Below, piece by piece: positions 11,083 through 38,617 of a stretch of DNA of 64,000 bases. The DNA lies in assembly GCA_021399395.1 (NCBI GenBank), contig JAAFKJ010000047.1, positions 657-64,656 of the forward strand, written 5' to 3'. This DNA is from Candidatus Heimdallarchaeota archaeon. GTDB taxonomy: Archaea; Asgardarchaeota; Heimdallarchaeia; Heimdallarchaeales; Heimdallarchaeaceae. The stretch's first letter is position 1; the number at the start of each line of letters is the position of its first letter. Both the position numbers and the translations under genes were made by a program. The notes beneath the pieces were generated by a model, which ran no database searches, was not told the DNA's origin, and saw only the letters and a program-made list of their open reading frames with translations.

Positions 11083-11121
11083 AAAGAAATCCGTCATCCA
11101 AATACACACTCTTCTTTTGTT

Positions 11122-11532: not shown

Positions 11533-11652
11533 TTCCGTACCTCATGTTCATCTGTATCCTATCCTTTTTGTTTGTTTCGTTCTAGAAGTTTTACGATTTT
11601 TCATGATTCCTTTAAACAAAAACTATTTTAACCTTAGGTAGTAGTCTAAATT

Positions 11653-11657
11653 GAGGT
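11653..11657 (+). promoter_or_regulatory. Shine-Dalgarno-like GAGGT upstream of the TTG start of aIF1A
   Basis: GAGGT lies 6 nt upstream of TTG at 11664. The same GAGGT motif precedes the ATG at 30240, 7 nt upstream. Confidence 0.45.
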
Positions 11658-11663
11658 TAGCAC

Positions 11664-12038: not shown

Positions 12039-12186
12039 TGGAACAATCCCGTTCACCTCATTTTTAAACATCAACAATAGTTTTATTTAGTTTCAATTTG
12101 TTTTATTTTCATATATCAAGTATTTAATCGCCCCCTTGAGTATTTACTCTTTGCAAACAAAAACTCACTCTCAAAAATAAAATTAA

Positions 12187-12996: not shown

Positions 12997-13007
12997 AAGG
13001 TGAAAAA

Positions 13008-20970: not shown

Positions 20971-21088
20971 AAATTAAGTTATATAATATATTCAAAAATC
21001 TGATGGATATAGACAAAAACATGCCATTAATGTGATATTGAGCGATAATATTTTTTAAAGAAGAAAATATTGTACGAACAAGAGCGTT

Positions 21089-22351
21089 ATGTTTGATACT
21101 ATAGAAAACTACCCCTATCTTGAATATAAGAACAAAGAACTTCATTTAAATGGAAAAACAATTGATTCCGTTCTTTCAAAAAAAGAAACTCCAATTTTCA
21201 TATTTTTAGAAGAAAGATTTCTGAATAATGCTACTGAATTAGAACAGAATCTCAAAAAGTCCATTCCAAATTTGTTTATATCCTATGCAATTAAAGCAAA
21301 TTACCTAGGTAGAATTTTACATAGTGCTAAGAAAATTGGTTTGGGGATTGAAGTCATGTCACTTTTTGAGCTAAAATTGGCACGCGAAGCTAAAATCCCA
21401 AACAAAGATATCATCTTTAATGGACCCGCTAAAACAACAGAAGAGCTGGAATATGCACTTGGTGAGGGAATCGAGAACATAAATGTCGATTCTATGAATG
21501 AACTGATTCTTATTGAAAAACTAGCTAAGAAAAGAAATATGGTCCAACCCATCACTGTACGTATTCATCCGAAGCTAGATGAAAAAACAGAAAGGAAGAT
21601 GTTAATCAAGAAAAACAGCAAACTTGGAATAGATTACTCAAGAGGAGTAAAGTTATTTGAGTTCGCAAAGAAGAGTGAAAATCTAAATCCAGTAGGAGTT
21701 CATACTCATATTGGGACAAACCTAACTTCTCACAATTTCTACGAAGAGTTATTAGAGTTCATGAATAAATATATTAGTGATCTCGAAAAGAAGCATGGTA
21801 TTTCAATTGAGAACATAAATCTAGGAGGAGGTTTAGCTAGTAAATCCACATTAGACAAGAGTGGATTTCAGATAGCAAAATTAGGCGAACAAATTTCTTC
21901 ACATATATCTAACATTGAAGATAAAACGATCATCTTTGAACCTGGAAGATACTTAATAGAAGATAGTTTCGTTGCTATCACTAAAGTCCTTAGAACAAAG
22001 AAATCTTGGGGAAGGAAATGGGCTTTCACCGATATAGGAGCTAATTCATTAATCCCTATGAGATATACTCATTACAAAGTTATTCCTCAGAATTTCAAAG
22101 GAAAAGGTCAATATACAAATATCGGAGGCCCTTTGTGTTTACCCGTAGATGTATTGACTGATGAATCTGTAGACTTTGAAATAGAGGAAGAGGATCTTTT
22201 AATGGTTTTAAACTGTGGAGCCTATACTATTTCAATGAGTGAACAATTCGGATATCCAAGGCCTGCGGTTTATGCTTTGAATCAAGAGAAAGAGTTGGAA
22301 TTAATCAAACCAGCTGATGACATAGATAAAATGGTAAGAGAATCTTTTTAG
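21089..22351 (+). CDS. PLP-dependent decarboxylase, Orn/Lys/Arg/DAP (fold-type III) family
   Basis: Contains the PLP-lysine motif SYAIKANY, then NLGGGL, EPGRYL and CGAYT. Substrate cannot be assigned from sequence alone. Confidence 0.85.
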   Translation: MFDTIENYPYLEYKNKELHLNGKTIDSVLSKKETPIFIFLEERFLNNATELEQNLKKSIPNLFISYAIKANYLGRILHSAKKIGLGIEVMSLFELKLAREAKIPNKDIIFNGPAKTTEELEYALGEGIENINVDSMNELILIEKLAKKRNMVQPITVRIHPKLDEKTERKMLIKKNSKLGIDYSRGVKLFEFAKKSENLNPVGVHTHIGTNLTSHNFYEELLEFMNKYISDLEKKHGISIENINLGGGLASKSTLDKSGFQIAKLGEQISSHISNIEDKTIIFEPGRYLIEDSFVAITKVLRTKKSWGRKWAFTDIGANSLIPMRYTHYKVIPQNFKGKGQYTNIGGPLCLPVDVLTDESVDFEIEEEDLLMVLNCGAYTISMSEQFGYPRPAVYALNQEKELELIKPADDIDKMVRESF

Positions 22352-22359
22352 GGGAAAAC

Positions 22360-22887
22360 ATGAAGAAGCCTTCTGATAGTCTAGAAATTTGTTCGAAACA
22401 TTGCGGGAGTAAATGTTGTAGAAGCACACCTCCAGCATTAACCAAAGAGGATATTGACAGAATAGAAGAAAAAACTAACATTGAGAATTGGTACACTACA
22501 ATTGAGTTTAATCAAAAAACTGCAAATGTTGTTGCCAAAAAAAATGATACAGATGATTGTTTTTTTCTATCAGATAATGGGTTGTGTGGTGTTTACGATT
22601 ACAGACCACTAGATTGCAAGTTATTTCCTTTATTTGTACAAATCAAAAAACAAGGTGAGAAAGAGTATAATGTTAGATGGTTGGTTTGGTACTGTCCTTT
22701 AACCGAGAATAAAGGGATAGAGGTTCTGAAAGTAGAATCAGAGAAACTTTTGATATCAATTTTATCGGAAAATCCAGATCAAATATTTGATTATCAAGAA
22801 GCAATGTATACTTCAAGAGGTTACAAAAAGAAACACTTCTTTAAGGAAGAATGTTTAAAGATACAAAAGAGTGATTCAGAATCATGA
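22360..22887 (+). CDS. YkgJ/UPF0153-like cysteine-cluster protein
   Basis: Contains an N-terminal CSKHCGSKCC cluster and CFFLSDNGLCGVYDYRPLDCKLFP. The stop overlaps the next gene's ATG (ATGA). Confidence 0.7.
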   Translation: MKKPSDSLEICSKHCGSKCCRSTPPALTKEDIDRIEEKTNIENWYTTIEFNQKTANVVAKKNDTDDCFFLSDNGLCGVYDYRPLDCKLFPLFVQIKKQGEKEYNVRWLVWYCPLTENKGIEVLKVESEKLLISILSENPDQIFDYQEAMYTSRGYKKKHFFKEECLKIQKSDSES

Positions 22888-23873
22888 CCACAATCTCCCT
22901 TATAATTCCAACTTACAATAATGCCTCCACTTTGAGAGCTTGTTTAGATTCTGTAAAAAAACAAACACTAACTCCAACAGAAATAATCATCGCTGATGGT
23001 CATTCAAGTGATGACACTGTCAATATTGCAAAGGAATTTGGCTGTAAAATAGTATACGAAGAAGGGGGAACAAGAGCTGCTGCATGTAATGTAGCGCTTG
23101 AAAAAGCCGAAGGAGAATTGATAGCTTTTACAGATTCTGATGTAATTGCTAAAGAAGATTGGCTGGAAAAACTTGTATCTACTCTAGACACAATAGAATA
23201 CGAAAATGTTGTTTGCATAACAGGACCAAATATTGAATATCCTAATGAGAGTTTGTTCGGAAAAGCTGTCACTGCGATTTACAATACCTTTCTAGGAGGA
23301 GGCTGGTCAGAGCAAGCTAGAAGCATATTTAACAAAGAGGGTAGATTTGTTGAAAGTGCTGCGGGGTGTAATGTACTATATAGAAGAGAAGCATTGAATG
23401 AAGTTCTTCCATTTGATGAAGATTTATTAACTGCGGAAGATACTGACATCAATTTCAAACTTCTGAAAAGAGGGTTCAAACTTTACTTTACCCCAGAAGC
23501 AATTGTTTATCATCAACGTCCTCAAAATCACAAATCATTCCGTTCTAAGTCAAAGAAATATGCAATAGGAAAAATTCAGTTTTTCAAAGAGCATAAAACA
23601 GGTCTTGAGCTATGGCATTTATTACCATCTTTCTATTTTATAACTGGAATCTTTCTAATTTTTGGTTTGTTTGCTAGCCTTTGGATCTGGATTGGTATTG
23701 TAGCATATTTTGGTTTTTATCTTTTAGTAATAATATTAGCTTCTTTGATTCAAGCTATAAAGTTCAGACAGTGGAAGTTTATCTTCTTATTACCTATCAT
23801 GTTCATTGAAGGTCATATATCATGGAGTATTGGAATACTGAAAGAAATTTTCCTTCCAATGAAAAGAGAGTGA
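22884..23873 (+). CDS. Glycosyltransferase family 2 (GT-A) with C-terminal TM segments
   Basis: Contains IIPTYNNASTLRACLDSV and the DxD motif FTDSDVIA, plus a hydrophobic C-terminal third. Confidence 0.85.
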   Translation: MTTISLIIPTYNNASTLRACLDSVKKQTLTPTEIIIADGHSSDDTVNIAKEFGCKIVYEEGGTRAAACNVALEKAEGELIAFTDSDVIAKEDWLEKLVSTLDTIEYENVVCITGPNIEYPNESLFGKAVTAIYNTFLGGGWSEQARSIFNKEGRFVESAAGCNVLYRREALNEVLPFDEDLLTAEDTDINFKLLKRGFKLYFTPEAIVYHQRPQNHKSFRSKSKKYAIGKIQFFKEHKTGLELWHLLPSFYFITGIFLIFGLFASLWIWIGIVAYFGFYLLVIILASLIQAIKFRQWKFIFLLPIMFIEGHISWSIGILKEIFLPMKRE

Positions 23874-23878
23874 AATAG

Positions 23879-25096
23879 ATGTCCTTAAACATAGCAATGA
23901 TTTTCGAATTAGGTCCTCACGATGATGGCTTAATCGGAGGTGGTGTAGAACTTCATGCGTTAAACCTTTCAAAGGCACTTGTTAAAAGAGGACATAAAGT
24001 GACATATATCACAGGTTCCATACCCAATAATGAGAATAAAACAAATATTGAAGGGGTGGAGATTAAAAGAGTTGATCTTTTATCTATTATAAAACGAGGT
24101 TATAACGCTCAAGAATTAAAATTTTCTCGGCAATTCTTTTTCTTGTTGAAAAACACATTACCAATATTGAGAAGAGAGATAGATAGTAAAGCGTATGATC
24201 TCTTTCATGGTCATGTTTATTCTTCAGGTTTAGTAGCGACGGCTTTAGGAAAGAGAAATCAAAAGATAATTATCAACACAATGCATGGATCCTACTATAA
24301 ATATTGGAGTCAGTTGGTAAAGAATCGAATCAAGGCTGGATTCTATAGAGGAATGGAAAGAAAACTAGCTCCATATTTAGCAAAAAAGGCTCATTGTCAG
24401 ATTCATACAGATTATGATTATGCTCAGATAGTTAAAAACTGGTGTAAAGAAGAAACAAAAACTAAAATCCATACGGTGTTAAATGGAGTTGATATAGAAA
24501 AGTTTCATCCCGAAATATCTCCTGAAACTAGTATTATAGAAGAGGATGGACCAATCATTATGACTACCAGAAGATTAGTAGTGAAGAATGGTGTGATTCA
24601 CTTAGTTAGAGGTTTTGAAAAAATCTTAAAGAAACACTCATCGGCAAAACTACTGATTGTAGGTGATGGTCCAGAAAGGTCCCCCATTGAGAGAGAAATA
24701 AAACAAAGAGAATTATCTAGTAGTGTTAAATTAACAGGGATGGTCCCCAATGACAAAATACCTTCATATTTGGCCCTAGCTGATGTAGTTGTTGTGCCAA
24801 GCATAGTTGAAGCATCTAGCATAAGTGTACTTGAAGCGATGGCAATGAGAAAGGCGATAGTAGCTTCAGACATTCCAGGTATTAGGGAAATAACAAACCA
24901 AGGAAAAAATTGTGTGTTAGTCCCGCCTAAAGACCCCAAAGCTTTAGCAGATGGTGTGATAAAACTATTGGATTCAAAAGAACGTGCAATTAAATTAGCA
25001 AAATTAGCTTATGATAATGCAGTTAAAGACTTCAGTTGGGAGAAAAAAGCACAAGAAATAGAAGCCCTCTATTTGAGAGAGCTTGATAGGAGTTGA
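23879..25096 (+). CDS. Glycosyltransferase family 4
   Basis: 405-aa ORF with the EX7E motif EASSISVLEAMAMRKAIV. Confidence 0.85.
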   Translation: MSLNIAMIFELGPHDDGLIGGGVELHALNLSKALVKRGHKVTYITGSIPNNENKTNIEGVEIKRVDLLSIIKRGYNAQELKFSRQFFFLLKNTLPILRREIDSKAYDLFHGHVYSSGLVATALGKRNQKIIINTMHGSYYKYWSQLVKNRIKAGFYRGMERKLAPYLAKKAHCQIHTDYDYAQIVKNWCKEETKTKIHTVLNGVDIEKFHPEISPETSIIEEDGPIIMTTRRLVVKNGVIHLVRGFEKILKKHSSAKLLIVGDGPERSPIEREIKQRELSSSVKLTGMVPNDKIPSYLALADVVVVPSIVEASSISVLEAMAMRKAIVASDIPGIREITNQGKNCVLVPPKDPKALADGVIKLLDSKERAIKLAKLAYDNAVKDFSWEKKAQEIEALYLRELDRS

Positions 25097-25103
25097 CTTG
25101 GAA

Positions 25104-25988
25104 ATGGAGACGAGTTTTTGTTTTAGAGTAGATATAGACACTTGGGAAGGATTACATAAAGGAATTCCGGAATGCTTGAGACTCTCTAAGGAAAATTCAT
25201 TTCCGTTTACATATTATTTGAGTTTAGGAAAATATGCAACGGGTAGGAATCTCTTTCGAATTATAAAGAAGAATGAGCCCATTAGAAGAAATATTCCAAT
25301 ATGGAAAAGAAATCATTGGAAAGATCTATTCCGTGGCATTTTACTTCCACCTAAAAAAATAGGAAGTAATACAATAAAGATACTTCAAGAATATCAGGCA
25401 AATGAACATACTGAGTTTCATTCTCATGGGTATAATCATGTGCATTGGGCAAATTCATTTGATCATTTCAGTGAAAATGAAACTTCTAATTATCTTGATT
25501 TGATGAAAACAGAATATACTAAGATTTTTGGAAAAGAACCTCAAGCTAATGCTGCACCCAATTTCAAAGTAAACCCTTTCTACTTGGCAATATTATCATC
25601 AAAGCAATTCAAATTCGCTTCAGATTTTGTTTATCATTCACCCTTTTTACTTTCTTCCAGTGATAAGAGTAAAAAAACAGAAGAATCTATAGTACAGTTA
25701 CCTGTTACTGAGGAAACAATTGAAAGTTTAGTGATGCAAGGTAAAAATAAAAGTGAAATTATTGAGTACTACAAACAAAGGTTTCAGAAACAAATTGATA
25801 ATGGTATTTCTTATGTGTGTTTGTATATTCATGCAATATATGAACCATTAAAGCTATATTCTATTATTGAGGACATAATCAAATTAACTGAACAATATGA
25901 CATGAAACCTCTAACACACTTAGAATATTATAATCAAAGAAAACAATATCCAACAATCAAAATCAAGAACATCTTACCGGAGATATAA
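25104..25988 (+). CDS. Polysaccharide deacetylase-like (CE4/ArnD-like) protein
   Basis: Contains FRVDIDT and HSHGYNHVHW motifs resembling CE4 metal-binding motifs. I chose ATG 25104, which has GGAG upstream. The ORF track starts at TTG 25083. Confidence 0.55.
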   Translation: METSFCFRVDIDTWEGLHKGIPECLRLSKENSFPFTYYLSLGKYATGRNLFRIIKKNEPIRRNIPIWKRNHWKDLFRGILLPPKKIGSNTIKILQEYQANEHTEFHSHGYNHVHWANSFDHFSENETSNYLDLMKTEYTKIFGKEPQANAAPNFKVNPFYLAILSSKQFKFASDFVYHSPFLLSSSDKSKKTEESIVQLPVTEETIESLVMQGKNKSEIIEYYKQRFQKQIDNGISYVCLYIHAIYEPLKLYSIIEDIIKLTEQYDMKPLTHLEYYNQRKQYPTIKIKNILPEI

Positions 25989-25991
25989 CAT

Positions 25992-27140
25992 ATGAATAAA
26001 AACACATCGTGCATACTCACTCAAGAATATAAAAGAGGAGCTACATGGATTTACAGTGAAGAGTTAGCTAAAGCAATTAAGAGACAAAGTGACTGGAATC
26101 CTGTTTTAGTTACAGCATTAAGGGATGAAAAACTTACCCCTAAACCTGAAAAATCAGAGATTGAAATTGAATTTATAAATACAATTTCGTCAAGATTTTT
26201 CTATTCTAATAGTTATTGGAGAGGAACTGGTTCTGTTGTTGAAGCAATAAAACCGTCAATTATACACGGTAATCTCCCTATGCTATCCACTCGAAAAATA
26301 AAAACAAACAAACCCATAGTTGAAACAGTTCATACAACATTTTATGGAGAACAAAAATCTATTATCCAAGAACCATCAGTTACATTGAACTGGGTCGAAA
26401 GAAGATTGTTATTGGCTTTTCCCTTTTTGCAAAGAATTGAAACTAAGCTTATGAAACAAGCTGATCATCTTATTGCCGTTAGCGAACCTATTAAACAGGA
26501 AATAATGGAAAACTATCCAATTGAAGATTCTAAGATTTCTGTTATACCAAATGGGGTGGATATAACAAAATATACTAAAGATGAGAACAAAATTTACGAG
26601 AAAAATGATGATGAGTTTGTTTTAGGATTTCTGGGAAGGATGATGATTAGAAAAGGTTCTGAATTACTTGCTCCATTATTAAAGAGAGTAAAGGATGTGA
26701 ATCCAAATGTCAAATTACTGTTCGCTGGAGATGATCTGAAACAGAAAAAGAATTTTGCTAGAACATTGAAGAATTATGATCTTACAGAGTCAGTTGTAGA
26801 TTTAGGTTATATTGATGACAATATGAAAAATAGTTTCTTCAGCTCTGTCGATTTGTTCTTACTTCCTTCAAACTATGAAGGCATGAACCTAACTTTGCTT
26901 GAAGCGTTATCATGTCAAACACCTATTCTAGCTGCACCTGAAGCAGTTACATTTGAACATGATGATACAATTTTCACAGCACAGCGAAACGTTAAATCTT
27001 TTGCAGATAAGATAGTTGAGTTAATGGAAAATAAACAATTACTATCCTCAATAGCAAAGAAATCTAGAGGGATAGCTGAAAAATACACTTGGGATAACAC
27101 TGCTGAACAAACCCTTGAAGTCTATGAAAAACTCTTATGA
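25992..27140 (+). CDS. Glycosyltransferase family 4
   Basis: 382-aa ORF with the EX7E motif EGMNLTLLEALSCQTPIL. Confidence 0.8.
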   Translation: MNKNTSCILTQEYKRGATWIYSEELAKAIKRQSDWNPVLVTALRDEKLTPKPEKSEIEIEFINTISSRFFYSNSYWRGTGSVVEAIKPSIIHGNLPMLSTRKIKTNKPIVETVHTTFYGEQKSIIQEPSVTLNWVERRLLLAFPFLQRIETKLMKQADHLIAVSEPIKQEIMENYPIEDSKISVIPNGVDITKYTKDENKIYEKNDDEFVLGFLGRMMIRKGSELLAPLLKRVKDVNPNVKLLFAGDDLKQKKNFARTLKNYDLTESVVDLGYIDDNMKNSFFSSVDLFLLPSNYEGMNLTLLEALSCQTPILAAPEAVTFEHDDTIFTAQRNVKSFADKIVELMENKQLLSSIAKKSRGIAEKYTWDNTAEQTLEVYEKLL

Positions 27141-28223
27141 TTCATCTATATTTTGACTAGATTTCTTCTTTTTCCTTTCTTCTTTCTTTGCTATCTTTCT
27201 TTGTTTTCTTTCTTGTTTTACTTCTTTTGTTTCAGCAAGAGGGAGAATATACATCCAGAAAATAGGAAGCCAAATAATTAAAATTACATACCCTAGGTAA
27301 TTGTGTACTGGTCCAGCAATTGAGCCACCTTGATAGTAATATAATGAGATGATAATCATAATTCTAATCAGATTCATGATATAAGTTCCAATAATACCAA
27401 GCAGAGTTACTAAAATTGTTTTATAATTCCATTGAAGTCGCTTACGTGCTTCAAAAAGCATAAGAAGGAATACAGCTGCAAAAACAGTTAGAGAATGTAT
27501 ACCACTACAAGCAGCATCAACATAGAGAGAACCTTGCCCACTGGGGGCATTGGAAAAAATAATTCTAATCATCCATTTTGTGTCAATTAGGTTGCGTAGT
27601 TCAAACGGTGAGCTAAGGAAAAATGTAGTTCGATTTACTCCCGCTAATTGTGTATATGTATAGAAGGGTACCCAACTAACATCCAGTAAATTCACTCCAA
27701 AAGCCATAACAATTGAAGAAGTAATGACACCAGTTGACCTTGTTAACCATTTTGCTAGGGTTGTACTAAACAATAGTTCAGAAATATCAGTAAATATGAA
27801 AATGTAGAAAATAGTAGTTAACACTACAACATATATTCCTGGAGAGCGATACTTCTTGAAAAATGGATCATCCCAAGTTATATAGAAGACCAGAATTGTA
27901 GCGAGTACCAAACCTATTGGAACAAGAGTAGCCCGTAATGCTTTATTTTCTGCTTCAGGATATGTTTCATACAGAACATAAAGTGTAACAACTAAACCAA
28001 AAAGGATTGCAGAAAGAGTATATCTTACATATTTATTTTTAAGAGGAAGAATAATTGGTTCAAGTTTCGAATAAGTTTTAGACGAGAAAGTAGAGAGATC
28101 CTCTTTTGATTTAGAAACGAATCTAGATAGTTTTGTTTGAGGTTTATCATCAGATGATTCCTCAGTTGAAGTTTTCACTTCTTTACTATCTTTAGAATCA
28201 ACCTCATCTGCCATTTGAATCAA
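27135..28223 (-). CDS. Archaeosortase/exosortase family transpeptidase-like membrane protein
   Basis: 362-aa polytopic membrane protein with the family's Cys-Arg-His signature in the expected order: VDAACSGIHS, MNLIRIM, then GPVHNYLG. It also has a roughly 60-aa hydrophilic N-terminal extension and a Lys/Glu-rich C-terminal tail. Confidence 0.65.
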   Translation of the reverse strand: MIQMADEVDSKDSKEVKTSTEESSDDKPQTKLSRFVSKSKEDLSTFSSKTYSKLEPIILPLKNKYVRYTLSAILFGLVVTLYVLYETYPEAENKALRATLVPIGLVLATILVFYITWDDPFFKKYRSPGIYVVVLTTIFYIFIFTDISELLFSTTLAKWLTRSTGVITSSIVMAFGVNLLDVSWVPFYTYTQLAGVNRTTFFLSSPFELRNLIDTKWMIRIIFSNAPSGQGSLYVDAACSGIHSLTVFAAVFLLMLFEARKRLQWNYKTILVTLLGIIGTYIMNLIRIMIIISLYYYQGGSIAGPVHNYLGYVILIIWLPIFWMYILPLAETKEVKQERKQRKIAKKEERKKKKSSQNIDES

Positions 28224-28308
28224 CTATTTATTACTAAAAATTAAAGTTCCCCATTTGTTAAACCTAACGTTTCTTCAAATGGAAATTAAGCATTGAAATG
28301 AGATGAAC

Positions 28309-28518
28309 TCATTCGTCTTCATAGATAATGTTGTTAAAGGCATTATCAACATTTGGAAAACGAAAGTCTGTTGATTGCTTTGAAGCATAATGTTCTCTGT
28401 AAAAATCTCTTAATGCCAATCTTATTGCCTCTGATCTCGATGCATATCGCCCTTGAAGAACCATTTCATCTAAAATTTCTACAAATTGACTAGGAAGTCT
28501 TATTGAAATCAAGTTCAT
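28309..28518 (-). CDS. Ribbon-helix-helix (CopG family) DNA-binding protein
   Basis: The segment MNLISIRLPSQFVEILDEMVLQGRYASRSEAIRLALRDF has the RHH pattern. Confidence 0.7.
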   Translation of the reverse strand: MNLISIRLPSQFVEILDEMVLQGRYASRSEAIRLALRDFYREHYASKQSTDFRFPNVDNAFNNIIYEDE

Positions 28519-28724
28519 TTTTTAACCCCAAACAAGTATTGTATTATTCTAGTAATAGTGCTTAACCCATTTATAGATTTGTAACACTTTTTGTTCAAGA
28601 ATACCCAATACTTTGATTCCAATCTCACAAGTTTTTAAGGTTTACCTCACCGACAATAAAACCCTAACTTGATAAGAGGAAAACTTAGAGAAATAGTAAA
28701 AAACTTGATTTTCTGAAAAAGGAA

Positions 28725-29309
28725 TTAGATTGAAACCAACTTCTTGCACTTTTCACATTCCAAAATCGTACTGTCAGGTAAAGGATCCTTTGTCTTCTTT
28801 AGAACATTACCGCAATAGCAAACGTATCCTTGCAATCGAGCAGGATTTCCATACACCAATTCATGGTGTTGAACATCTTTTGAGACCAAACTTCCTGCAC
28901 CAATCATTGCATACTCTCCAATTGTAATTCCACAAACAATTGTTGCGTTTGCTCCTATTGAAACGCCCTTCATAACTTGTGTTTTTACCAACTCCCAATC
29001 AGGATTTGCTGCTCTTGGTAGAAAATCATTTGTAAAACATACATGTGGTCCAACAAAAACATCATCGCCTATTGTTACACCATGATACACAGACACAAAA
29101 TTTTGTATCTTAACATTGTTACCTATGGGAACTTTAGTATCAACAAAGACAGATTTTCCAAATATGCAGTTTTTACCTATTCTTGCTCCTTTTCTTATCT
29201 GAACCAGATGCCATATCTTAGAACCTTCACCAATAAATACGTCGTCTTCAATAAAAGCAGAAGGATGAACATAGTAGTCTTTATCCGCATTCATAATTCT
29301 ATAATTCAT
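28725..29309 (-). CDS. Left-handed beta-helix (hexapeptide-repeat) sugar N-acyltransferase with C-terminal zinc ribbon
   Basis: Contains consecutive hexapeptide repeats (IGKNCIFGKSVFVDTKVPIGNNVKIQNFVSVYHGVTIGDDVFVG). The C-terminus is CYCG...CEKCKK. Confidence 0.85.
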   Translation of the reverse strand: MNYRIMNADKDYYVHPSAFIEDDVFIGEGSKIWHLVQIRKGARIGKNCIFGKSVFVDTKVPIGNNVKIQNFVSVYHGVTIGDDVFVGPHVCFTNDFLPRAANPDWELVKTQVMKGVSIGANATIVCGITIGEYAMIGAGSLVSKDVQHHELVYGNPARLQGYVCYCGNVLKKTKDPLPDSTILECEKCKKLVSI

Positions 29310-29345: not shown

Positions 29346-30113
29346 TTACAATTGCGAACAGCTTTTACAGTTATTGTCTTGTTCAATTTGAAATGTTTCA
29401 TACGAATTATATTGTAAATCTACATACATAATCTTGTTTACCAGTAGTTTTTGATTATCTCTAAATACAAGGTATTTGATAGCTTCATTTGCTTCAATTA
29501 TTCCAAAAAAACCAGCAATAGTACCAATAACACCATCTTCACTTGTTGTAGGATATGAACCAGGGGTCGGTATTTCTTTAAACATACATCTATAGCAAGC
29601 TGTTTTGCCAGGAATCACGGTCATCATCTGACCCTCAAATTGATAAACACCACCAATAACAAAAGGAATCCCAAGTTTACAGCACATATCGTTTACGAGG
29701 AATTTAGTTTCGAAGTTATCACTGGCTTCAACAACAAAGTCATAACCCGCTAATAATTCTTCAATATTTGAAGAATTCAGAGTTACAGAATGTTCTACAA
29801 TCTTTACATCAGGATTAAGTTTAGTAATCTTCTCAAAAGCTGACAAAGTTTTAGCTTTACCTTTATCTTCTTCATAATGTAAAATTTGCCTGTTCAAATT
29901 GGATAATTCTATCTGATCTTGGTCAACAAGTCCAAGAGAACCTACACCAGCTGTAGCCAAATAATAAACAATACTTGAACCCAGACCCCCTAAACCAATA
30001 ACGCACACTTTACTTGATTTTAGTTTTTCTTGTCCCTGTATTCCGAAATTCGATATTATTATTTGACGATTATACTTCTCAAGTTCTCTCTCATCTAACA
30101 TTTTACCTATCAA
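29346..30113 (-). CDS. ThiF/MoeB/HesA family E1-like adenylyltransferase
   Basis: Contains the nucleotide loop VIGLGGLGS and the zinc motif CYRC, with a second pair CKSC at the C-terminus. Confidence 0.85.
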   Translation of the reverse strand: MIGKMLDERELEKYNRQIIISNFGIQGQEKLKSSKVCVIGLGGLGSSIVYYLATAGVGSLGLVDQDQIELSNLNRQILHYEEDKGKAKTLSAFEKITKLNPDVKIVEHSVTLNSSNIEELLAGYDFVVEASDNFETKFLVNDMCCKLGIPFVIGGVYQFEGQMMTVIPGKTACYRCMFKEIPTPGSYPTTSEDGVIGTIAGFFGIIEANEAIKYLVFRDNQKLLVNKIMYVDLQYNSYETFQIEQDNNCKSCSQL

Positions 30114-30239
30114 AATACAGTTAAAAATGAAAGTAAAATAATCTTTCTAATAGTAAATCATAAAATGTATAAGATGCCAAAATATTTAAAATCGTTTCAT
30201 CTCATTGGCACAACGACTAGAAACACCGAGGTTTCAACA

Positions 30240-32333
30240 ATGAAAAAGATAAGAAGTACAATTGTTACTTTGGCTGTGCTATTTACAATATCCATGTTAT
30301 TTTCAGTAATGTATGGAATAGTACAAGCTAACCAATCAGCAGATTTACCTATAATCCAACCAGAAAGAATAAACACATCAATTCCTTCAACAGAAGAATT
30401 GTCCCTAACAGATGATATTGTGTTCGAATATAACTATGGAATAAATGTCACTGCTATAGCTAATAGATCTATAGAAATTCAAACATTCGGTGTATTATCA
30501 CTGGTTGACTCAATAAAACTTGAAATTGTTGGAAATGTGAATTTAACATATTTCAATTATACTTTACCAAATATTCACACTAGTAATATTACATTTGCAA
30601 GTTTCCGTGTTTCAAATGATTCTTATGAGGCAGTAGGCAACTCATCAGCTATGCGTTCTTACACTTATCAGAAGAAGATAAATTATACAACCTTTATAAT
30701 ACCTTTACATGTCAATAGAACAAGTTTTGGGCAAGGTCAAGTAATTTACATCAGTACTTATCTAGAATTTTCTTCCCCCTATTTGTTTTGGTTAGAAGGA
30801 GGAGAGCAAGTAATTCATTATGAAGAGTTAATTTATCCTTTAATCAATAACATCCCAATAGTAAATGGTTCAACGTGGGTACAGAAACAGGGTGGTGATG
30901 TTTTCTTATTGGATAGACTTACCCCAACTAATGGTACTAATGGAATTTTCAATTCAGTTGATACAAATCAAGGAGTAATAAAATGGACAAATATTACAAG
31001 ACAGCCATTTAATTACTCACAATCATACGATGAAGACATATACATGCATGTCTATCTAACAGCAGTTTCAGTAGGTGGAGAAGTAGAAAATCCAGCTAAT
31101 ACTATGCTGTTCAAATCTACAGAGATAAATCGTAGAATTGAAATAGATCCTTATGGATTAATTAAAATTACCGAGCAACAAACACTTCACTACTTTGGAC
31201 CTGAGAGACCAGAAGGTAATTTGTATGAACTTAAATTATGGGCATTGAACTCTTTTCCAGTTATCTTACCAATAAATGCTACAGTTCTTGAGCTCTATGA
31301 TGAAATAGGTGGATTGAATCAGCAATACCAAATAAGTGACGACCTATTTTTTGAGCCAGGAGCATATAATCAACGTCCTAGTGTATTTCTTGGTCATGAT
31401 GCATTAGTCATTTTTCCACGAGCACCTTTATTCAATGGAGATGAATTTACTTTTACAATGATTTACACAGTACCTATGGAAGTATATATTGAGAAAGAAC
31501 AAGGAAGCATCAATTATAGGATGAAATTTGAGCCTTGTTCAATTATTAATTGGACAGTAGAACAACTGAATGTGGATTTAGTTCTTCCCAAAGGAGCTGT
31601 ATATCATACAATTAGATACAATAATCCTGATCCTTACCAAGATATGATACTCAACTATAATAAAAAATTCGATTTTGTTTCTCTAGGATTCAGGAGAATT
31701 CTCAGTTTCTCATTTACTACTTTCACAGGGAATGATAATGCTCCACTAGTGGTTGAATTTAGTTATTCAAGGTTAAATGTTCTCATCACTTACTTCTTCC
31801 AAGTACTTACAGTTGGTATCGTATTTGCTATATATCTTGGAATTAGATGGTCAACAAAGAAAACTAAAGATCTAGTGGTGAGTGAATCTGAGAAAGAATT
31901 TATTCCAATCGAAGAAATTGAGGAATTTGTTAAACAGTACGAAGAAGTTCTATCTATAAAAGAAAGGCTCAGAGAAACTAGAAGTAAAGTCGCAGCAAAG
32001 AAAATGAAAGCTAAAGAAGGAAAAGACGTGATTGCTAAATTAGAGACACGTATGAGATCTGAAGAAATCAATCTCAAACAAACTAAGGAAACTCTAGTTA
32101 AACATGGTGGAAGATATAAGCAATCCGTTCAAAAAATTGAAATTGCTGAAAGAAAACTCTATGAAGAAAGAAGAAATCTACGTGTTCTTCAACAAGAATA
32201 TAGAGTAAAGAAGACTATTATGACTAGAGAGTCTTACGTAAAGATGTTCCAAGACAGACAGCAAACCATTGAAAAACTCAGAAATGACATCGATGGTGAG
32301 TTACTATACCTTAGAATGTTATTGGAACCTTAA
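30240..32333 (+). CDS. Ribophorin I (OST1)-like type-I membrane glycoprotein
   Basis: The start is set at ATG 30240, preceded by GAGGT 7 nt upstream. The order is a signal/anchor, a roughly 500-aa luminal-type domain with 17 N-x-S/T sequons (hand count), a single TM segment (VLITYFFQVLTVGIVFAIYLGI) and a roughly 160-aa charged coiled-coil tail. Local motifs match my recollection of human RPN1 (see finding). Confidence 0.6.
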   Translation: MKKIRSTIVTLAVLFTISMLFSVMYGIVQANQSADLPIIQPERINTSIPSTEELSLTDDIVFEYNYGINVTAIANRSIEIQTFGVLSLVDSIKLEIVGNVNLTYFNYTLPNIHTSNITFASFRVSNDSYEAVGNSSAMRSYTYQKKINYTTFIIPLHVNRTSFGQGQVIYISTYLEFSSPYLFWLEGGEQVIHYEELIYPLINNIPIVNGSTWVQKQGGDVFLLDRLTPTNGTNGIFNSVDTNQGVIKWTNITRQPFNYSQSYDEDIYMHVYLTAVSVGGEVENPANTMLFKSTEINRRIEIDPYGLIKITEQQTLHYFGPERPEGNLYELKLWALNSFPVILPINATVLELYDEIGGLNQQYQISDDLFFEPGAYNQRPSVFLGHDALVIFPRAPLFNGDEFTFTMIYTVPMEVYIEKEQGSINYRMKFEPCSIINWTVEQLNVDLVLPKGAVYHTIRYNNPDPYQDMILNYNKKFDFVSLGFRRILSFSFTTFTGNDNAPLVVEFSYSRLNVLITYFFQVLTVGIVFAIYLGIRWSTKKTKDLVVSESEKEFIPIEEIEEFVKQYEEVLSIKERLRETRSKVAAKKMKAKEGKDVIAKLETRMRSEEINLKQTKETLVKHGGRYKQSVQKIEIAERKLYEERRNLRVLQQEYRVKKTIMTRESYVKMFQDRQQTIEKLRNDIDGELLYLRMLLEP

Positions 32334-32429
32334 TCCTTTTTTCCTTCTCCTTTTTTTATCCAAAAGGCAATCTGAAAAAACTTATAAGAACATGCAATAT
32401 CTTTAATTTACAAACTCTTAGGGTTAACT

Positions 32430-32834
32430 ATGCATCTTGAAAGTATAACAGAAAGTGCCGAAACAATTGGTAAAGAAGTTCCCGGACTCTCTGACGTAGC
32501 AGAAGAACTTGCACAAGTCCTAAAGAAAGGAAGGCTTATGCTCAATAAGTTGTTTGATCTATGTAATCGAGTTGGATTAAATATAGATTTAAGTCCAGAG
32601 GAGCAAAATGAAATTTCTCTTAAGGTAGCCTTAGTTACGGATCCTGACCAAGTATTTCAATATGCAAGAGTAGTCCAACTGGTTTTTCAACTGAATTATT
32701 TTTCTAAGTGTTATGAAAAAGCTCTTGGTTATGGTAAACTTCCAAATATCGTTAAGAAAGAGGCAGTTTCACTTCACAAAAAAATCGATGAGTTCAGAAG
32801 AATAATTGAAAAGGAATATGTTGCCAGCATCTAG
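32430..32834 (+). CDS. Hypothetical all-helical protein
   Basis: 134-aa ORF with no family recognised. Confidence 0.4.
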   Translation: MHLESITESAETIGKEVPGLSDVAEELAQVLKKGRLMLNKLFDLCNRVGLNIDLSPEEQNEISLKVALVTDPDQVFQYARVVQLVFQLNYFSKCYEKALGYGKLPNIVKKEAVSLHKKIDEFRRIIEKEYVASI

Positions 32835-33729: not shown

Positions 33730-36372
33730 ATGAAGCAGTTTGATGATCGAAAGCTAAAGCCAACGTTAACTCCTATGATGCAACAGTGGCAGGATATTAA
33801 AATACAACATTCAGATTACATAATATTCTTCCGAGCAGGAGATTTCTATGAAACCTTTAATGAAGATGCAAAGATTGCTTCAGATGTTTTGAATATCACT
33901 CTTACAGCAAGAACAATCGGAGAAAGAAAGTTTCCATTAGCTGGTGTTCCGTTTCATGCTGTAGACGCATATATTGCTAAAATGGTTGAAAACGGTTACA
34001 AAGTGGCTATAGTTGAGCAGCTTGAAGACGCTAAAGCTACTAAGAAGATTGTTAAACGTGGAGTTGTACAATTAATAACAAGAGGTACAATAACGATCCC
34101 AGAATCTCTAAGCAAGGGACATAATAATTATCTTGTTGCTATCAATAAAGTAGGCGATATCTATGGTTTAGCTGCTCTCGATTTATCCACTGGTGAGTTT
34201 TTGGTTTCGGATTTCGAAGGAGATAAAGCTCTAGATCTTCTAAATGTTGAACTAACTAGATTAAATCCCTCTGAGATAATAATGGAGGAGCAATTAAACA
34301 AAGAACTAAAAGAATTTGGAGAACAAAGCAAAACTACTAAAACCTACAGAGAGTTTTACTATTTTGATATCGATCAAGGGTCAAGGGATCTTTGTACCCT
34401 CTTTGAAGTTCTTAGCTTAGATGGATTTGGAGTCAATGAAACATATCCCTCAATAGGAGCTGCAGGTGCAATTATTAGGTATATCAAAGAAACCCAAATG
34501 AGGGAAAACTTTCCTAATATAACAAAAATCAGTCAAATTATTAGTCAGGATTACATGCTTTTAGATTCAAGTACTATTCGAAATCTAGAACTTATCGAAA
34601 ACTTACAAGCTAGAACAGAGTACGGAACTTTGAGACAGGTTCTGGATAATACAAAAACATCTCCTGGATCTCGACTTCTAACTTCATTTATCTTGAGACC
34701 TAGTTTGAACGAAACAATCATTCAAGGAAGATTAGATGCGACTGAAGAATTAGTAAGTGACAGTGTTTCAAGAGAAGAATTTCGAAGTATTCTGAACAAA
34801 ATGAGTGACATTGAAAGAATTACAGGAAGGATATGTCTTGGAAGGAGTAAACCAAGAGATTTGGTTGCATTAAAAAACTCACTCGAACTAATTCCAGAAA
34901 TCCTTACAATTCTTTCAAAATTCAAATCATCACTTCTTACTGATATACACAAGAACTTAGATCCCTTGAAGGAGGTAGTAGAGATTATAACAAAGGGCAT
35001 AGAAGATGAAGTTCCAGTAAATATCAAAGATGGAGATGTCATTCGAGACGGTTACAACGAAGATTTAGATGAATTAAGAAAAATCCAAAGAGGAGGCAAA
35101 TCTTTTCTAACATCTTTAGAAGCAAGAGAGAGAGTTAATACAGGCATTAAGAATCTTAAAGTTCGCTTTAACAAGGTTTTTGGTTACTATATTGAAGTCC
35201 CAAGAGCTTCATCAGACAAAGTTCCAATACAATATGAAAGAAAGCAGACATTAGTCAATGCTGAACGATTTATCACTCCTGAATTGAAAGAATATGAGGA
35301 GAAAATTCTCAATGCCGAGGAAAGAATCTTAGTCTTAGAAGAAGAATTATTTTATAATCTATTAATGCAAATAGCTGAATATGCAACGACAATTCAACAA
35401 GATGCATATCTCACTGCGCTCCTAGACGTTATTGCCACATTTGCTCAAAATGCCGTATATTATAATTATACAAAGCCCGAGATAACAAATGATGACATAA
35501 TTGAGATAAGAGAGGGGAGGCACCCTGTTGTTGAAAGATTATTACCTCAGTCAACTTTTATCTCCAATAATACTACAATCAAGAAGAATGAAAATAGGAT
35601 ATTGATAATAACGGGGCCAAATATGGGCGGAAAATCGACACTTCTCCGACAAGTTGCACTTATTACGTTAATGACACAAATAGGTAGTTTTATACCAGCT
35701 GATTCTGCAACAATTGGGTTAGTTGACCGGATTTTTACTCGTATTGGAGCTCATGATGTGTTAGTTGAACGTAGATCAACTTTCATGGTTGAGATGTATG
35801 AATGTGCTAACATCCTCAATAATGCAACTGAAAGAAGCTTAGTTATTTTGGATGAAGTTGGTAGAGGAACATCAACTTATGATGGAGTTTCAATTGCATG
35901 GTCAATTACAGAGTATTTGCATGATAAAATTGGTAAAATAGGTCCTAGAACTCTATTTGCTACCCATTACCATGAATTAATAGAATTGGAAACTAAACTA
36001 CCAAGAGTGAAAAATTATCACGCCTCTATCAAAAATGTAAATGGGGATATTCACTTCTTGTACAAACTTCAAGAAGGAGGGATCAGTGAAAGTTTCGGTA
36101 TTCATGTTGCATCTTTAGCAGGATTACCAAAGGATGTAATTGATAATGCAAATAGCTTGCTTTCGCAATTCCATAAAAGTGGGGAAGAAAAAGACAAAGC
36201 AATTATTCCTGCAAAAACAGATGAAGAAACCCTTTCTAGAAAATTGGACAGATTTGAAGAGCTAATTAAAGAAATTTCAAAACTAGATTTAGATGAAATA
36301 AAACCGATTGATTCTCTTAACAAGCTAGATGATCTTAAAGAAAGAAGTAAAAAGATTCTAAAGGACAAATAA
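33730..36372 (+). CDS. mutS: DNA mismatch repair protein MutS (bacterial MutS1 type)
   Basis: 880-aa ORF with an N-terminal mismatch-binding domain (TPMMQQW...GDFYE), Walker A GPNMGGKST and FATHYHEL. Confidence 0.95.
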   Translation: MKQFDDRKLKPTLTPMMQQWQDIKIQHSDYIIFFRAGDFYETFNEDAKIASDVLNITLTARTIGERKFPLAGVPFHAVDAYIAKMVENGYKVAIVEQLEDAKATKKIVKRGVVQLITRGTITIPESLSKGHNNYLVAINKVGDIYGLAALDLSTGEFLVSDFEGDKALDLLNVELTRLNPSEIIMEEQLNKELKEFGEQSKTTKTYREFYYFDIDQGSRDLCTLFEVLSLDGFGVNETYPSIGAAGAIIRYIKETQMRENFPNITKISQIISQDYMLLDSSTIRNLELIENLQARTEYGTLRQVLDNTKTSPGSRLLTSFILRPSLNETIIQGRLDATEELVSDSVSREEFRSILNKMSDIERITGRICLGRSKPRDLVALKNSLELIPEILTILSKFKSSLLTDIHKNLDPLKEVVEIITKGIEDEVPVNIKDGDVIRDGYNEDLDELRKIQRGGKSFLTSLEARERVNTGIKNLKVRFNKVFGYYIEVPRASSDKVPIQYERKQTLVNAERFITPELKEYEEKILNAEERILVLEEELFYNLLMQIAEYATTIQQDAYLTALLDVIATFAQNAVYYNYTKPEITNDDIIEIREGRHPVVERLLPQSTFISNNTTIKKNENRILIITGPNMGGKSTLLRQVALITLMTQIGSFIPADSATIGLVDRIFTRIGAHDVLVERRSTFMVEMYECANILNNATERSLVILDEVGRGTSTYDGVSIAWSITEYLHDKIGKIGPRTLFATHYHELIELETKLPRVKNYHASIKNVNGDIHFLYKLQEGGISESFGIHVASLAGLPKDVIDNANSLLSQFHKSGEEKDKAIIPAKTDEETLSRKLDRFEELIKEISKLDLDEIKPIDSLNKLDDLKERSKKILKDK

Positions 36373-36431
36373 CAATAAAAACTAGGAATGTCTTCTAAGA
36401 TTTAGCAAAAACAATAATTATCTGTGGTTCT

Positions 36432-38249
36432 ATGAAGCTGAAAATACTTGAACTCGATACTCTTACGATAAACAAAATTGCTGCAGGAGAAGTAATAGAA
36501 AGACCTGCTTCCGTAGTCAAAGAGCTAGTAGAAAATTCACTAGATGCTCAAAGTGACCAAATAACAATAAATATTCATGAGGGAGGTAAGAGTCTCATTG
36601 AAATTATTGATAATGGCATGGGAATGAACCCCGAAGATGCAATTTTATCCATTAAGCGTCATACAACAAGCAAAATAACAAATGCAGATGATCTCTTCTC
36701 AATCTACAGTTTAGGATTTAGAGGAGAAGCTCTAGCAAGTATAGTTAGTGTTGCTCAAGTGGAAATATTCTCCAGAACCAAGGAAAATGAAATTGGTACT
36801 CATATCTCTGTTGAAGGAGGTAAACTAATCTTTAACAAGAACATATCAACACCCGTAGGAACACGAATAGTTGTGAAAAATCTTTTTTACAATGTTCCTG
36901 TTAGAAGAAACTTCCTCAAAACAATTTCAACTGAAATCAACCATATAACTGAATTTGTTACCCGTTTAGCTCTTTCTCAGCCTGATGTTGCTTTTTCGTT
37001 AAAACATAATGGAAAAGATATACTGACAGCACCAAAAGGGGATTTGCTTGCACAAATTACAGCCATCTTCGGAGAACAAATAGCTAAAGGATGTATTGCA
37101 TTAGATAAAGATGAAGACAACTATAAGATTAAGGGATTCATTACCAAACCCGAATTTTCTAGGAAATCCAAAGATTATCTTTATACTTTTGTGAATATGA
37201 GATCTATTTCAAATAAAACAATTTCAGATGCCACATCACGTGGTTATGGTACTTCTATCCCACATGGCAGATTTCCCATTATTTTTCTCTATCTTACTCT
37301 ACCAGCTGAAGAAGTCGATGTGAATGTTCATCCCACCAAAAGAGAAGTAAGGTTTAGCAAAGAATCAAAAGTATACAGTTTGATTGAATCTGCGGTTAGA
37401 CAAGCTTTAGAAAAAAGTGGATTGGAAATCTTCGAAAGAACATTAGAAACAAGATTCAAACCAACAACTCTAACAAATATTGGAAAACTGAAAACTAAAT
37501 CAGATACAAGTAAAAGAACAACACCAACTTCAACTATTGCAAAGCAACCAAAGTTTCAGATCATAAAAAGTAAAGAACAAAGAATTGATTCCTTTCTCCC
37601 TTCATCTATGACTGGAGTTTCTGACTTGGATAAGACTGCACAGCAGAAGGTTGGTATCAAGGTTCTTGGAATCATCAAAGACACCTATATTGTAGCAGAG
37701 ACTGAAGCAGGGTTATTTCTAAGTGATCAACATGCGGCTCATGAAAAGGTGAATTATGAGAGATATATCAATCAGCTTAAGAATAAAAGAGTGAATGTTC
37801 AACAATTACTTGCACCAGTTAATATTGCTCTCAAACCTTCTGAATTTGCAAGCTTTGAAGAAATTCGTGAGAATATGGGATTATTTGGATTTGAAATTGA
37901 TGTCTTTGGCAAAAATGAAATTATTCTGCGCTCAATACCTTCAATTATGGGGGTTTCGATTGATTTCACAATCGCAAAGGATATCATCGATATAATTAAA
38001 GAAAATGTATCTGAAATAAAGAACAATCTTCAAGTTGAAGATTTGAAATTCATCAAAGATCTTGTTTCTATTTTCGCATGTAGAAGATCGATAAAAGCTG
38101 GTGATAAGATCGCAATAGAACAAGCAGAAACGTTACTGAAAAACCTTCTATCACTCAAAGAACCTTTCACTTGTCCTCATGGCAGACCCACTATCATTAT
38201 TCTTAATGAAGATTATATCGAAGAACTTTTCAAAAGAGATTATAGATGA
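36432..38249 (+). CDS. mutL: DNA mismatch repair protein MutL (endonuclease-proficient type)
   Basis: Has a GHKL ATPase N-terminus (ELVENSLDA, DNGMGM). The C-terminus carries the endonuclease motifs DQHAAHEKVNYE (DQHAx2Ex4E), ACR and CPHGRP. Confidence 0.95.
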   Translation: MKLKILELDTLTINKIAAGEVIERPASVVKELVENSLDAQSDQITINIHEGGKSLIEIIDNGMGMNPEDAILSIKRHTTSKITNADDLFSIYSLGFRGEALASIVSVAQVEIFSRTKENEIGTHISVEGGKLIFNKNISTPVGTRIVVKNLFYNVPVRRNFLKTISTEINHITEFVTRLALSQPDVAFSLKHNGKDILTAPKGDLLAQITAIFGEQIAKGCIALDKDEDNYKIKGFITKPEFSRKSKDYLYTFVNMRSISNKTISDATSRGYGTSIPHGRFPIIFLYLTLPAEEVDVNVHPTKREVRFSKESKVYSLIESAVRQALEKSGLEIFERTLETRFKPTTLTNIGKLKTKSDTSKRTTPTSTIAKQPKFQIIKSKEQRIDSFLPSSMTGVSDLDKTAQQKVGIKVLGIIKDTYIVAETEAGLFLSDQHAAHEKVNYERYINQLKNKRVNVQQLLAPVNIALKPSEFASFEEIRENMGLFGFEIDVFGKNEIILRSIPSIMGVSIDFTIAKDIIDIIKENVSEIKNNLQVEDLKFIKDLVSIFACRRSIKAGDKIAIEQAETLLKNLLSLKEPFTCPHGRPTIIILNEDYIEELFKRDYR

Positions 38250-38617
38250 ATGTGAGGATTATGGAAAACATAATTATAGTTAAACTGAAAGATTTCATTA
38301 ATAAGATTGACAGAGCAGCAGGTATTCAACTAGTTATGATTTTCATGACTCTTGTTGCTTTTATTATACTATTATATATTCAAAAGTATCTGCCAAGTTT
38401 TGAAGGCTCTCAAACCAAATTAATTATTGTTGATATTCTTTTAGGGGTTGGTTTGTTAATTGAATTTGGTTATTTCATATGGCATACCAATAAACAAGGA
38501 AAAGAGGAAAGCACTAAAAAGGCAGAAAACAAAGAATCCACAGCAGAAAACTCAGTGGAAATAGAGAATTTAGTAGAAACAGAAAATAAGGAAGTTATTC
38601 CAGAAAAGGACAAATAA
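38246..38617 (+). CDS. Small membrane protein (2 TM) with charged C-terminal tail
   Basis: 123-aa ORF whose ATG overlaps the mutL stop (ATGA). It has two hydrophobic segments. Confidence 0.45.
   Translation: MNVRIMENIIIVKLKDFINKIDRAAGIQLVMIFMTLVAFIILLYIQKYLPSFEGSQTKLIIVDILLGVGLLIEFGYFIWHTNKQGKEESTKKAENKESTAENSVEIENLVETENKEVIPEKDK

Follow-up and report, generated by a model that had tools for sequence, protein, structure and literature searches.

The locus described here raises the question of whether a member of the Heimdallarchaeia encodes a true counterpart of ribophorin I, the oligosaccharyltransferase (OST) subunit called RPN1 in humans and Ost1 in yeast, and, if so, what such a protein would do in an archaeal cell. 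The DNA is a stretch of 64,000 nucleotides from Candidatus Heimdallarchaeota archaeon (assembly GCA_021399395.1, contig JAAFKJ010000047.1, positions 657 to 64,656), referred to as the window and numbered from its first letter. An initial annotation, made from the sequence alone, had read the gene at 30240..32333 as a ribophorin I-like subunit. The encoded protein, designated OST1, is almost certainly a member of the ribophorin I/OST1 family and its Heimdallarchaeial orthologue. The best explanation overall, which we consider probable, is that this orthologue is a non-catalytic OST subunit.

Membership in the ribophorin I family

The Pfam Ribophorin_I hidden Markov model (HMM; PF04597), proposed as a check in the initial annotation, matched OST1 at 54.8 bits (E=1.1e-14), where the gathering cut-off is 25 bits. 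This match spans only residues 286-534, which correspond to positions 193-435 of the 437-position profile (the C-terminal half). NCBIfam searches of OST1 gave no family match. A profile of 31 members of the family (A1) was used for searching PDB sequences, for AlphaFold2 (AF2) modeling and for hhalign. Against PDB sequences, A1 matched human RPN1 with E=1.3e-10 (residues 286-637 aligned with RPN1 219-567), yeast Ost1 with E=2e-5 (Ost1 alignment 315-446) and, over the tail, 8whn_A, the cytoplasmic domain of OST1 from Prometheoarchaeum syntrophicum MK-D1, with E=1.6e-4.

The N-terminal half was covered by profile-profile alignment. When A1 was aligned by hhalign with A3, a profile of 17 canonical archaeal ribophorin I proteins of ~600 amino acids, the probability was 100% (E=3.1e-59) over 537 columns, with residues 72-693 aligned. 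Members of the canonical set (P0138, P0097 and P0070) match the N-terminal part or the whole of the PF04597 profile. As judged from these alignments, the ~285 N-terminal residues missed by Pfam are also homologous to canonical ribophorin I. Assignment to the family is thus based on the HMM match, the PDB sequence matches, the full-length hhalign homology and the OST1 fold of the AF2 model (see below).

The identity given in the initial annotation is upheld by the Pfam score, by hhalign over the full length and by Foldseek, whose top eight matches are all OST1/RPN1; neither of the two outcomes that the annotation had named as refuting it, a missing HMM match and an unrelated luminal fold, was obtained. 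Four motif pairs shared with human RPN1 had also been put forward, and all four are aligned in the HMMER alignment to 6s7o_E. The human strings given there were slightly wrong (actual sequence: RVIEVSHWGNIAVEEN), but the correspondence itself is correct.

Start codon and reading frame

The mechanically called open reading frame (ORF), which is uninterrupted, is 30165..32333 on the + strand (722 amino acids). The start at 30240 is Met26 of this ORF, reads MKKIRST... and is the second in-frame Met. When 31 homologues were aligned, the majority started at or after this Met and just six reached upstream of it. A Shine-Dalgarno-like GAGGT is present at 30228-30232, 7 nucleotides 5' of the 30240 Met, and an A/T-rich TATA-like element (30180-30191) lies 3' of the 30165 ATG. 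For these three reasons 30240 appears to be the better-supported start, and the 30165 ATG was rejected.

The two oligo-T tracts that follow the OST1 stop codon are a possible archaeal termination signal, as far as sequence can indicate. No hairpin terminators were found in a bacterial-type terminator scan. A bacterial sigma-70 promoter scan returned 17 sites versus 13.4 expected; both scans should be considered uninformative for an archaeon. The G+C content of the window, ~33%, agrees with its origin in an uncultured Heimdallarchaeaceae archaeon, the host to which the relatives of OST1 point.

Architecture and glycosylation sequons

Two hydrophobic segments delimit the extracytoplasmic part of OST1 (~480 amino acids). 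The first, at about residues 3-30, has hydropathy windows above 1.6 centered on residues 12-21 and is a helix from 2 to 30 in the model. The second has hydropathy windows centered on residues 520-528, falls in an unbroken model helix (511-549) and aligns with the transmembrane helix of human RPN1. The tail beyond it is 157 amino acids long and contains 22 Lys, 15 Arg, 5 Asp and 25 Glu. All 17 N-x-S/T sequons, a number counted exactly by hand in the initial annotation, are located between the two hydrophobic segments, with none in the tail. Because of the two segments, the placement of every sequon between them and the basic, sequon-free tail, OST1 is assigned a type I membrane topology on sequence grounds. 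Its signal peptide would be expected to be cleaved, since that of MK-D1 OST1 behaved in this way as a gEGFP fusion in HeLa cells (PMC11417166).

A low-confidence linker of ~35 amino acids (residues 31-66) joins the signal peptide to domain 1. Values of the predicted local distance difference test (pLDDT) in domain 1 are mostly 80-90, and the domain bears most of the conserved sequons and is spanned by the Foldseek alignments (~500 columns) to RPN1 of human OST-B and to yeast Ost1. Domain 2 holds the motifs common to human RPN1.

Composition-preserving shuffles of the ectodomain (n=2000) gave 5.8 +/- 2.1 sequons, and none reached 17. Expressed as density, OST1 carries 3.3 sequons per 100 amino acids versus 1.3 expected from composition; the corresponding values are 2.4 for the second tier of relatives defined below and 2.0 for canonical archaeal homologues (1.1 expected). 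Ten sites (N69, N75, N106, N126, N148, N231, N251, N258, N346 and N437) remain sequons in 28 or more of the 31 family members. Judging from the sequons, OST1 is probably a heavily N-glycosylated, surface-exposed glycoprotein.

Predicted structure

The AF2 model of OST1, built with A1, has a mean pLDDT of 76.4 and a predicted template modeling score (pTM) of 0.59. It contains two beta-rich domains (~70-274 and 291-509), the transmembrane helix and four long helices in the tail (557-585, 591-620, 625-656 and 663-693). In a Foldseek search of the PDB, ranks 1 to 8 were occupied exclusively by human and yeast OST1/RPN1 chains from OST cryo-EM structures (E 3.6e-28 to 4.4e-20). The next match had E=3e-7, which is ~13 orders of magnitude weaker, and the lower matches were to arrays of immunoglobulin-like domains and to M1 aminopeptidase and LTA4 hydrolase N-domains. 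For chains lacking the tail, template modeling (TM) scores were 0.70-0.72 with a root-mean-square deviation (rmsd) of 5.2-5.7 Å over ~500 columns. The comparison with OST cryo-EM structures suggested in the initial annotation therefore retrieved the OST1 fold.

OST1 is accordingly predicted to adopt two beta-sandwiches, one transmembrane helix and a cytoplasmic four-helix bundle. In the model it has the full metazoan-type architecture, including a tail of the ribosome-binding type. The architecture given in the initial annotation (a signal or anchor, an ectodomain and one transmembrane segment) agrees with this except for the tail, which had been described as a coiled coil. That description was rejected, since both AF2 and Foldseek give a four-helix bundle; weak coiled-coil-type matches in Pfam and NCBIfam (Fez1, SMC) are considered noise.

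Comparison with human, yeast and MK-D1 proteins

Human RPN1 (6S7O and 6S7T chain E, 8B6L chain O) is a type I protein with two beta-sandwiches and one transmembrane segment, and the cytosolic four-helix bundle is found in both proteins. Domain 2 of OST1 shares with it the motifs R.IE...G.I.V.E, DE.G, PR.PLF.G and LP.GA. Overall identity is only 13-14%, and the human ectodomain is shorter (~415 versus ~480 amino acids). Unlike RPN1, OST1 has several insertions and, past the signal peptide, a disordered linker of ~35 amino acids. Glycosylation of RPN1 is sparse, in contrast to the 17 sequons of OST1. The human protein resides in the endoplasmic reticulum (ER), whereas OST1 would be a cell-membrane protein exposed to the outside. 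In human OST-A, the RPN1 bundle contacts the ribosome (PMC11417166).

Yeast Ost1p (6EZN, 6C26, 7OCI and 8AGB) gave the best global superposition for ectodomain and transmembrane helix together, with TM scores of 0.71-0.72 (rmsd 5.2-5.7 Å, ~500 columns). It is a subunit of OST subcomplex I, together with Ost5. At 476 amino acids it lacks the cytosolic four-helix bundle, and OST1 therefore resembles the long-tailed form found in metazoans and Asgard archaea.

MK-D1 OST1 (WP_147663064.1, 607 amino acids) has the same order of signal peptide, two-domain ectodomain, transmembrane segment and four-helix bundle. OST1 is 90 amino acids longer, with all of the difference in the ectodomain, and belongs to a separate clade. 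The two tails are ~19% identical, yet the OST1 tail superposes on the MK-D1 structure (8WHN) with a TM score of 0.86 and an rmsd of 2.1 Å over 141 columns (Foldseek). The crystal structure of the MK-D1 tail shows four helices bundled in the same topology as in the human protein. This tail pulls down human ribosomes while the MK-D1 ectodomain does not, and binding to human ribosomes is shown for the human tail too (PMC11417166, 2024). The statement in the initial annotation that function and partners are uncharacterized in Asgard archaea is therefore outdated.

Published accounts of the distribution are in conflict. One report states that Ost1/ribophorin I is absent from MK-D1 (PMC11284389, 2024), whereas another identifies WP_147663064.1 and solves its tail as 8WHN (PMC11417166, 2024). 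Divergent archaeal OST1 proteins are evidently easily missed by BLAST-level searches. Ribophorin I has been cited as a previously reported eukaryotic signature protein of Asgard archaea (PMC10307638), and Heimdallarchaeia have been reported to encode homologues of STT3, Ost1 and Ost3 as well as Ost2, Ost4, Ost5, Swp1 and Wbp1 (PMC10307638; see also PMC8813620).

Distribution

A word-indexed search found close relatives in 47 clusters, 41-91% identical to OST1, nearly all 694-702 amino acids long and all with PF04597. Those with names belong to Heimdallarchaeota/Heimdallarchaeaceae, save one labeled Thorarchaeota and one labeled “Asgard group”; the closest database relative (91% identical) is annotated as hypothetical. 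Beyond these clusters, a profile search added one distant protein (22% identity, E=1e-8).

A HMMER search of 1.84 billion representatives (threshold E<=1e-3) returned 507 matches in three tiers, the first being the clade of OST1 itself. The second tier consists of ~15 proteins of 660-725 amino acids that align over their full length (E 1e-65 to 1e-45). The third is a large set of 560-620 amino acids that matches mainly from position ~290-390 on. A wide gap in score separates the clade of OST1 itself (at least 955 bits) from the next full-length tier (at most ~235 bits) and from the next word-indexed match (52 bits).

Among species-level genomes there are 31 loci, nearly all labeled Heimdallarchaeota (one Thorarchaeota and a few generic labels). 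OST1 in the nearest of these genomes is 85% identical, and the closed genomes of Ca. Heimdallarchaeum aukensis and Ca. H. endolithica have an OST1 match at 43% identity. Conservation is purifying and is strongest in the tail and transmembrane region. Proteins of the clade have 13-20 sequons each, ten of them conserved, and their extra ectodomain length relative to canonical forms consists of the ~35-residue linker and several insertions in both domains. By sequence, OST1 falls in a Heimdallarchaeaceae clade of its own, marked by an ectodomain that is longer and rich in sequons.

One metagenome-assembled genome, CSMAG_1090, has two contigs (L011 and L028), each with an OST1 and the DeoC-MutS neighborhood; these OST1 proteins are 64% and 51% identical to that of the window. 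A mixed bin of two strains is more likely here than a true pair of paralogues.

Proposed role and alternative explanations

By analogy with the eukaryotic enzyme, OST1 would be a non-catalytic subunit located beside the catalytic subunit AglB/STT3 in the cytoplasmic membrane. At the Sec translocon, its basic four-helix bundle would dock on the large subunit of a ribosome engaged in translation, and the OST1 ectodomains would scaffold the complex beside the emerging nascent chain. N-x-S/T sequons could then be glycosylated co-translationally, as by eukaryotic OST-A but at the cell surface, so that translocation would be coupled to N-glycosylation. We infer this mechanism from the integral position of OST1 in eukaryotic structures, the ribosome binding of the MK-D1 tail and the repertoire of OST subunits in Heimdallarchaeia. 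Note that this mechanism, that of a ribosome-docking OST subunit, is the less secure component of the proposal: we lean toward it, with less assurance than we have in membership of the family.

Several observations weigh against this interpretation. The Pfam model fails on domain 1 and the ectodomain is ~65 amino acids longer than that of human RPN1; due to these two features, the function of the ectodomain may have diverged. In the AF2 model the orientation of the tail relative to the ectodomain is unreliable (rmsd ~18 Å for full-length human chains). To our knowledge, purification of an OST complex from an archaeon has yet to be reported. Among the archaeal orthologues, the Lokiarchaeial one alone has been shown to bind ribosomes, and these were human (PMC11417166); its tail is the one with ~19% identity. 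Finally, the WWDxG motif of AglB/STT3 does not occur in any frame of the 64-kb window, and ORFs in the window gave no match to STT3, OST3, other OST or translocon families. The catalytic partner is not encoded in the window. This is no evidence against a role in OST, because Asgard genomes are reported to have their agl genes in dispersed positions (PMC11284389).

It is unlikely, though worth weighing, that OST1 serves instead as a ribosome-to-membrane tether or translocon accessory that is independent of glycosylation. In that case the tail would recruit ribosomes to the Sec translocon, the ectodomain would hold emerging polypeptides in the manner of a chaperone, and the association with OST would be a later, eukaryotic development. 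The only activity of an Asgard OST1 with experimental support is the binding of ribosomes by the tail (PMC11417166). The tail is also the best conserved part: it and the transmembrane segment show the highest conservation, and distant relatives match mainly from ~390 on. In Foldseek (E ~1e-6), each beta-sandwich resembles the N-domain of LTA4 hydrolase and M1 aminopeptidases, which faces the peptide and is non-catalytic, and no OST gene is nearby in the window. Against these points, the solved eukaryotic complexes all contain OST1 as an integral OST subunit. Heimdallarchaeia are moreover reported to have all other OST subunits, including Ost5, the subcomplex I partner of OST1 (PMC10307638), which makes an OST-like complex the simpler explanation. 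The tether overlaps with the role as an OST subunit and does not exclude it.

We consider it still less probable that OST1 is a stand-alone glycosylated surface protein, with a function in the envelope or in adhesion, that keeps the ribophorin fold and is a substrate, rather than a subunit, of the machinery encoded by the nearby glycan island. Such a protein would leave unexplained a conserved basic four-helix bundle that superposes on a ribosome-binding domain, and OST1 is present in a single copy per genome and has no repeats. The high sequon density and the ten conserved sites do fit a surface protein, as does an ectodomain enlarged relative to canonical forms; enrichment in sequons is, however, family-wide among archaeal OST1 homologues. 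Similarly, OST1 in most relatives lies no more than a few kb from genes for glycosyltransferases, an acetyltransferase and an archaeosortase-like protein, but the glycosyltransferase island is absent from the neighborhood in L005/L006-type genomes. That the OST1 frame arose by chance or is the remnant of a pseudogene can be regarded as refuted. Nothing favors it except that an A+T-rich genome is prone to long spurious ORFs, and it is contradicted by conservation over the full length at 41-91% identity in 47 clusters with length kept, by the significant Ribophorin_I HMM match and by a confident structure model. An OST subunit thus remains the explanation that we prefer.

The downstream gene p134

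Directly 3' of OST1, on the same strand, lies a gene for a 134-amino-acid orphan, p134. This arrangement, with a distance of 97-273 bp, recurs in L001-L006 and in 26 of the 28 species-level loci that are informative. In both Ca. Heimdallarchaeum genomes a p134 homologue (35-38% identity) is ~2 kb away on the opposite strand. Homologues form 50 clusters, and all those with a taxon-level name are Heimdallarchaeota/Heimdallarchaeaceae. The protein is better conserved than OST1 (e.g., 89% versus 63% in L009). A cassette of exactly two genes, OST1 and p134, is inverted between ThiF and DeoC in the window, L007, L008 and L016 when compared with other genomes (L001, L003, the remainder of L009-L017 and others). 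Because the cassette inverts together, the two genes appear from their arrangement to behave as a unit.

No Pfam or NCBIfam match was obtained for p134; the best PDB sequence match had E 0.11 and the best Foldseek match in the PDB had E ~1. That it might be a detached copy of the OST1 tail was rejected (hhalign probability 0.2%). The 96-bp spacer between OST1 and p134 holds the T6 and T7 tracts, followed by an A-rich TTATAA, a TATA-like element. These features weaken the case for a strict operon, and the two genes may be transcribed separately. We regard p134 as a candidate partner of OST1 specific to this clade, or as a gene that may be co-regulated with it. A more specific possibility, which is doubtful at present, is that p134 acts as a clade-specific cytoplasmic partner that binds the OST1 four-helix bundle and modulates docking of ribosomes at the translocon.

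Other genes in the window

Upstream of OST1, the initial annotation had noted a glycan island, a ThiF protein and an archaeosortase-like gene. All are present (Table 1), but their position gives only slight support for a functional linkage. The OST1 region is syntenic across the family, and adjacency is weak evidence for that reason. ThiF was rejected as an E1-like partner, since it is a generic MoeB/UbaA-type adenylyltransferase and lies past MutS-MutL in L005/L006/L018/L022/L031/L032-type genomes; its adjacency to OST1 is incidental. The glycan-assembly island (22884..29309) adjoins the OST1 region in many, though not all, relatives.

The ORF 18006..19727 (- strand) overlaps the start of a glycosyltransferase family 4 (GT4) gene (16861..18015) and encodes a polytopic protein of 572 amino acids, which has over 10 hydrophobic segments and matches nothing in Pfam or NCBIfam. 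It may be a GT-C-like or a polymerase/flippase-type glycan enzyme. It was rejected as a hidden AglB/STT3, having neither the WWDxG motif nor a family match. At 19810..22351, the genes for a BpsA-like branched-chain polyamine synthase and an Orn/Arg/DAP decarboxylase are arranged divergently. They look like a polyamine module and in L001, too, border the glycan island.

The order downstream of OST1 is p134, DeoC, bacterial-type MutS, MutL, a nucleotidyltransferase and MetK. MutS and MutL (33730..38249) have full bacterial-type domain sets, and MetK (40694..41878) is an S-adenosylmethionine synthetase of the bacterial/eukaryotic rather than the archaeal type; both the MutS-MutL pair and MetK are syntenic across Heimdallarchaeaceae. 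A protein of 123 amino acids with two transmembrane segments (38246..38617, + strand) has no family match, and its start overlaps the MutL stop. L001 and L003 have ORFs of 82-94 amino acids at the equivalent position.

Elsewhere in the window, this Asgard genome encodes two bactofilin-domain proteins (2283..3473 and 52156..53058, both + strand); bactofilins are a bacterial family of cytoskeletal proteins that form polymers. A eukaryote-like cluster for translation and ribosome biogenesis at 9629..13661 comprises NMD3, DUF424, aIF2-beta, aIF1A, RIO1 kinase and a KRR1/PNO1-like KH protein.

Table 1. Features of the OST1 locus, in window coordinates (GT2 and GT4, glycosyltransferase families 2 and 4)
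Feature	Coordinates	Strand	Basis or remark
OST1/ribophorin I homologue, coding sequence (697 amino acids plus stop)	30240..32333	+	Pfam, hhalign, Foldseek, homologue N-termini
N-terminal signal peptide or signal anchor (residues 1-30)	30240..30329	+	KKIR n-region, hydrophobic core, V-Q-A/N c-region (putative cut after A)
Extracytoplasmic beta-sandwich domain 1, predicted (residues ~67-276)	30438..31067	+	AF2 strands 70-274, hhalign, Foldseek
Extracytoplasmic beta-sandwich domain 2, predicted, membrane-proximal (residues ~286-510)	31095..31769	+	Pfam 286-534, AF2 strands 291-509
Single transmembrane helix, predicted (residues ~511-537)	31770..31850	+	Hydropathy, model, alignment with human RPN1 transmembrane helix
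Cytoplasmic four-helix bundle, predicted, net basic (residues 541-697)	31860..32330	+	AF2, Foldseek match to 8WHN, profile match
Two oligo-T tracts (T6 32337-32342, T7 32351-32357)	32337..32357	+	Just past OST1 stop
p134, 134-amino-acid orphan, predicted soluble five-helix bundle	32430..32834	+	Synteny, AF2 pLDDT 90.9
MoeB/UbaA-type ThiF	29346..30113	-	Upstream, divergent
Hexapeptide acyltransferase	28725..29309	-	
Exosortase/archaeosortase-family protein	27135..28223	-	Signature domain only; no subtype at its cut-off
GT4	25992..27140	+	
ArnD-like lipid-linked-sugar deformylase/deacetylase	25083..25988	+	Weak match
GT4	23879..25096	+	
GT2	22884..23873	+	

Implications

Ribophorin I is a eukaryotic signature protein that ties the translocon and OST machinery of the ER to Asgard archaea, among which the Heimdallarchaeia are placed closest to eukaryotes and are reported with the fullest set of OST subunits. 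To this the present analysis adds confirmation, at the level of predicted structure, of a metazoan-type OST1 architecture in Heimdallarchaeia. The current picture is unchanged, because the family, its distribution and the structure and activity of the tail have already been published. The one new lead is p134, a cheap candidate for interaction tests. If it does act on the OST1 tail as proposed, it would represent an accessory layer of the archaeal ribosome-translocon-OST machinery that has no eukaryotic or Lokiarchaeial counterpart.

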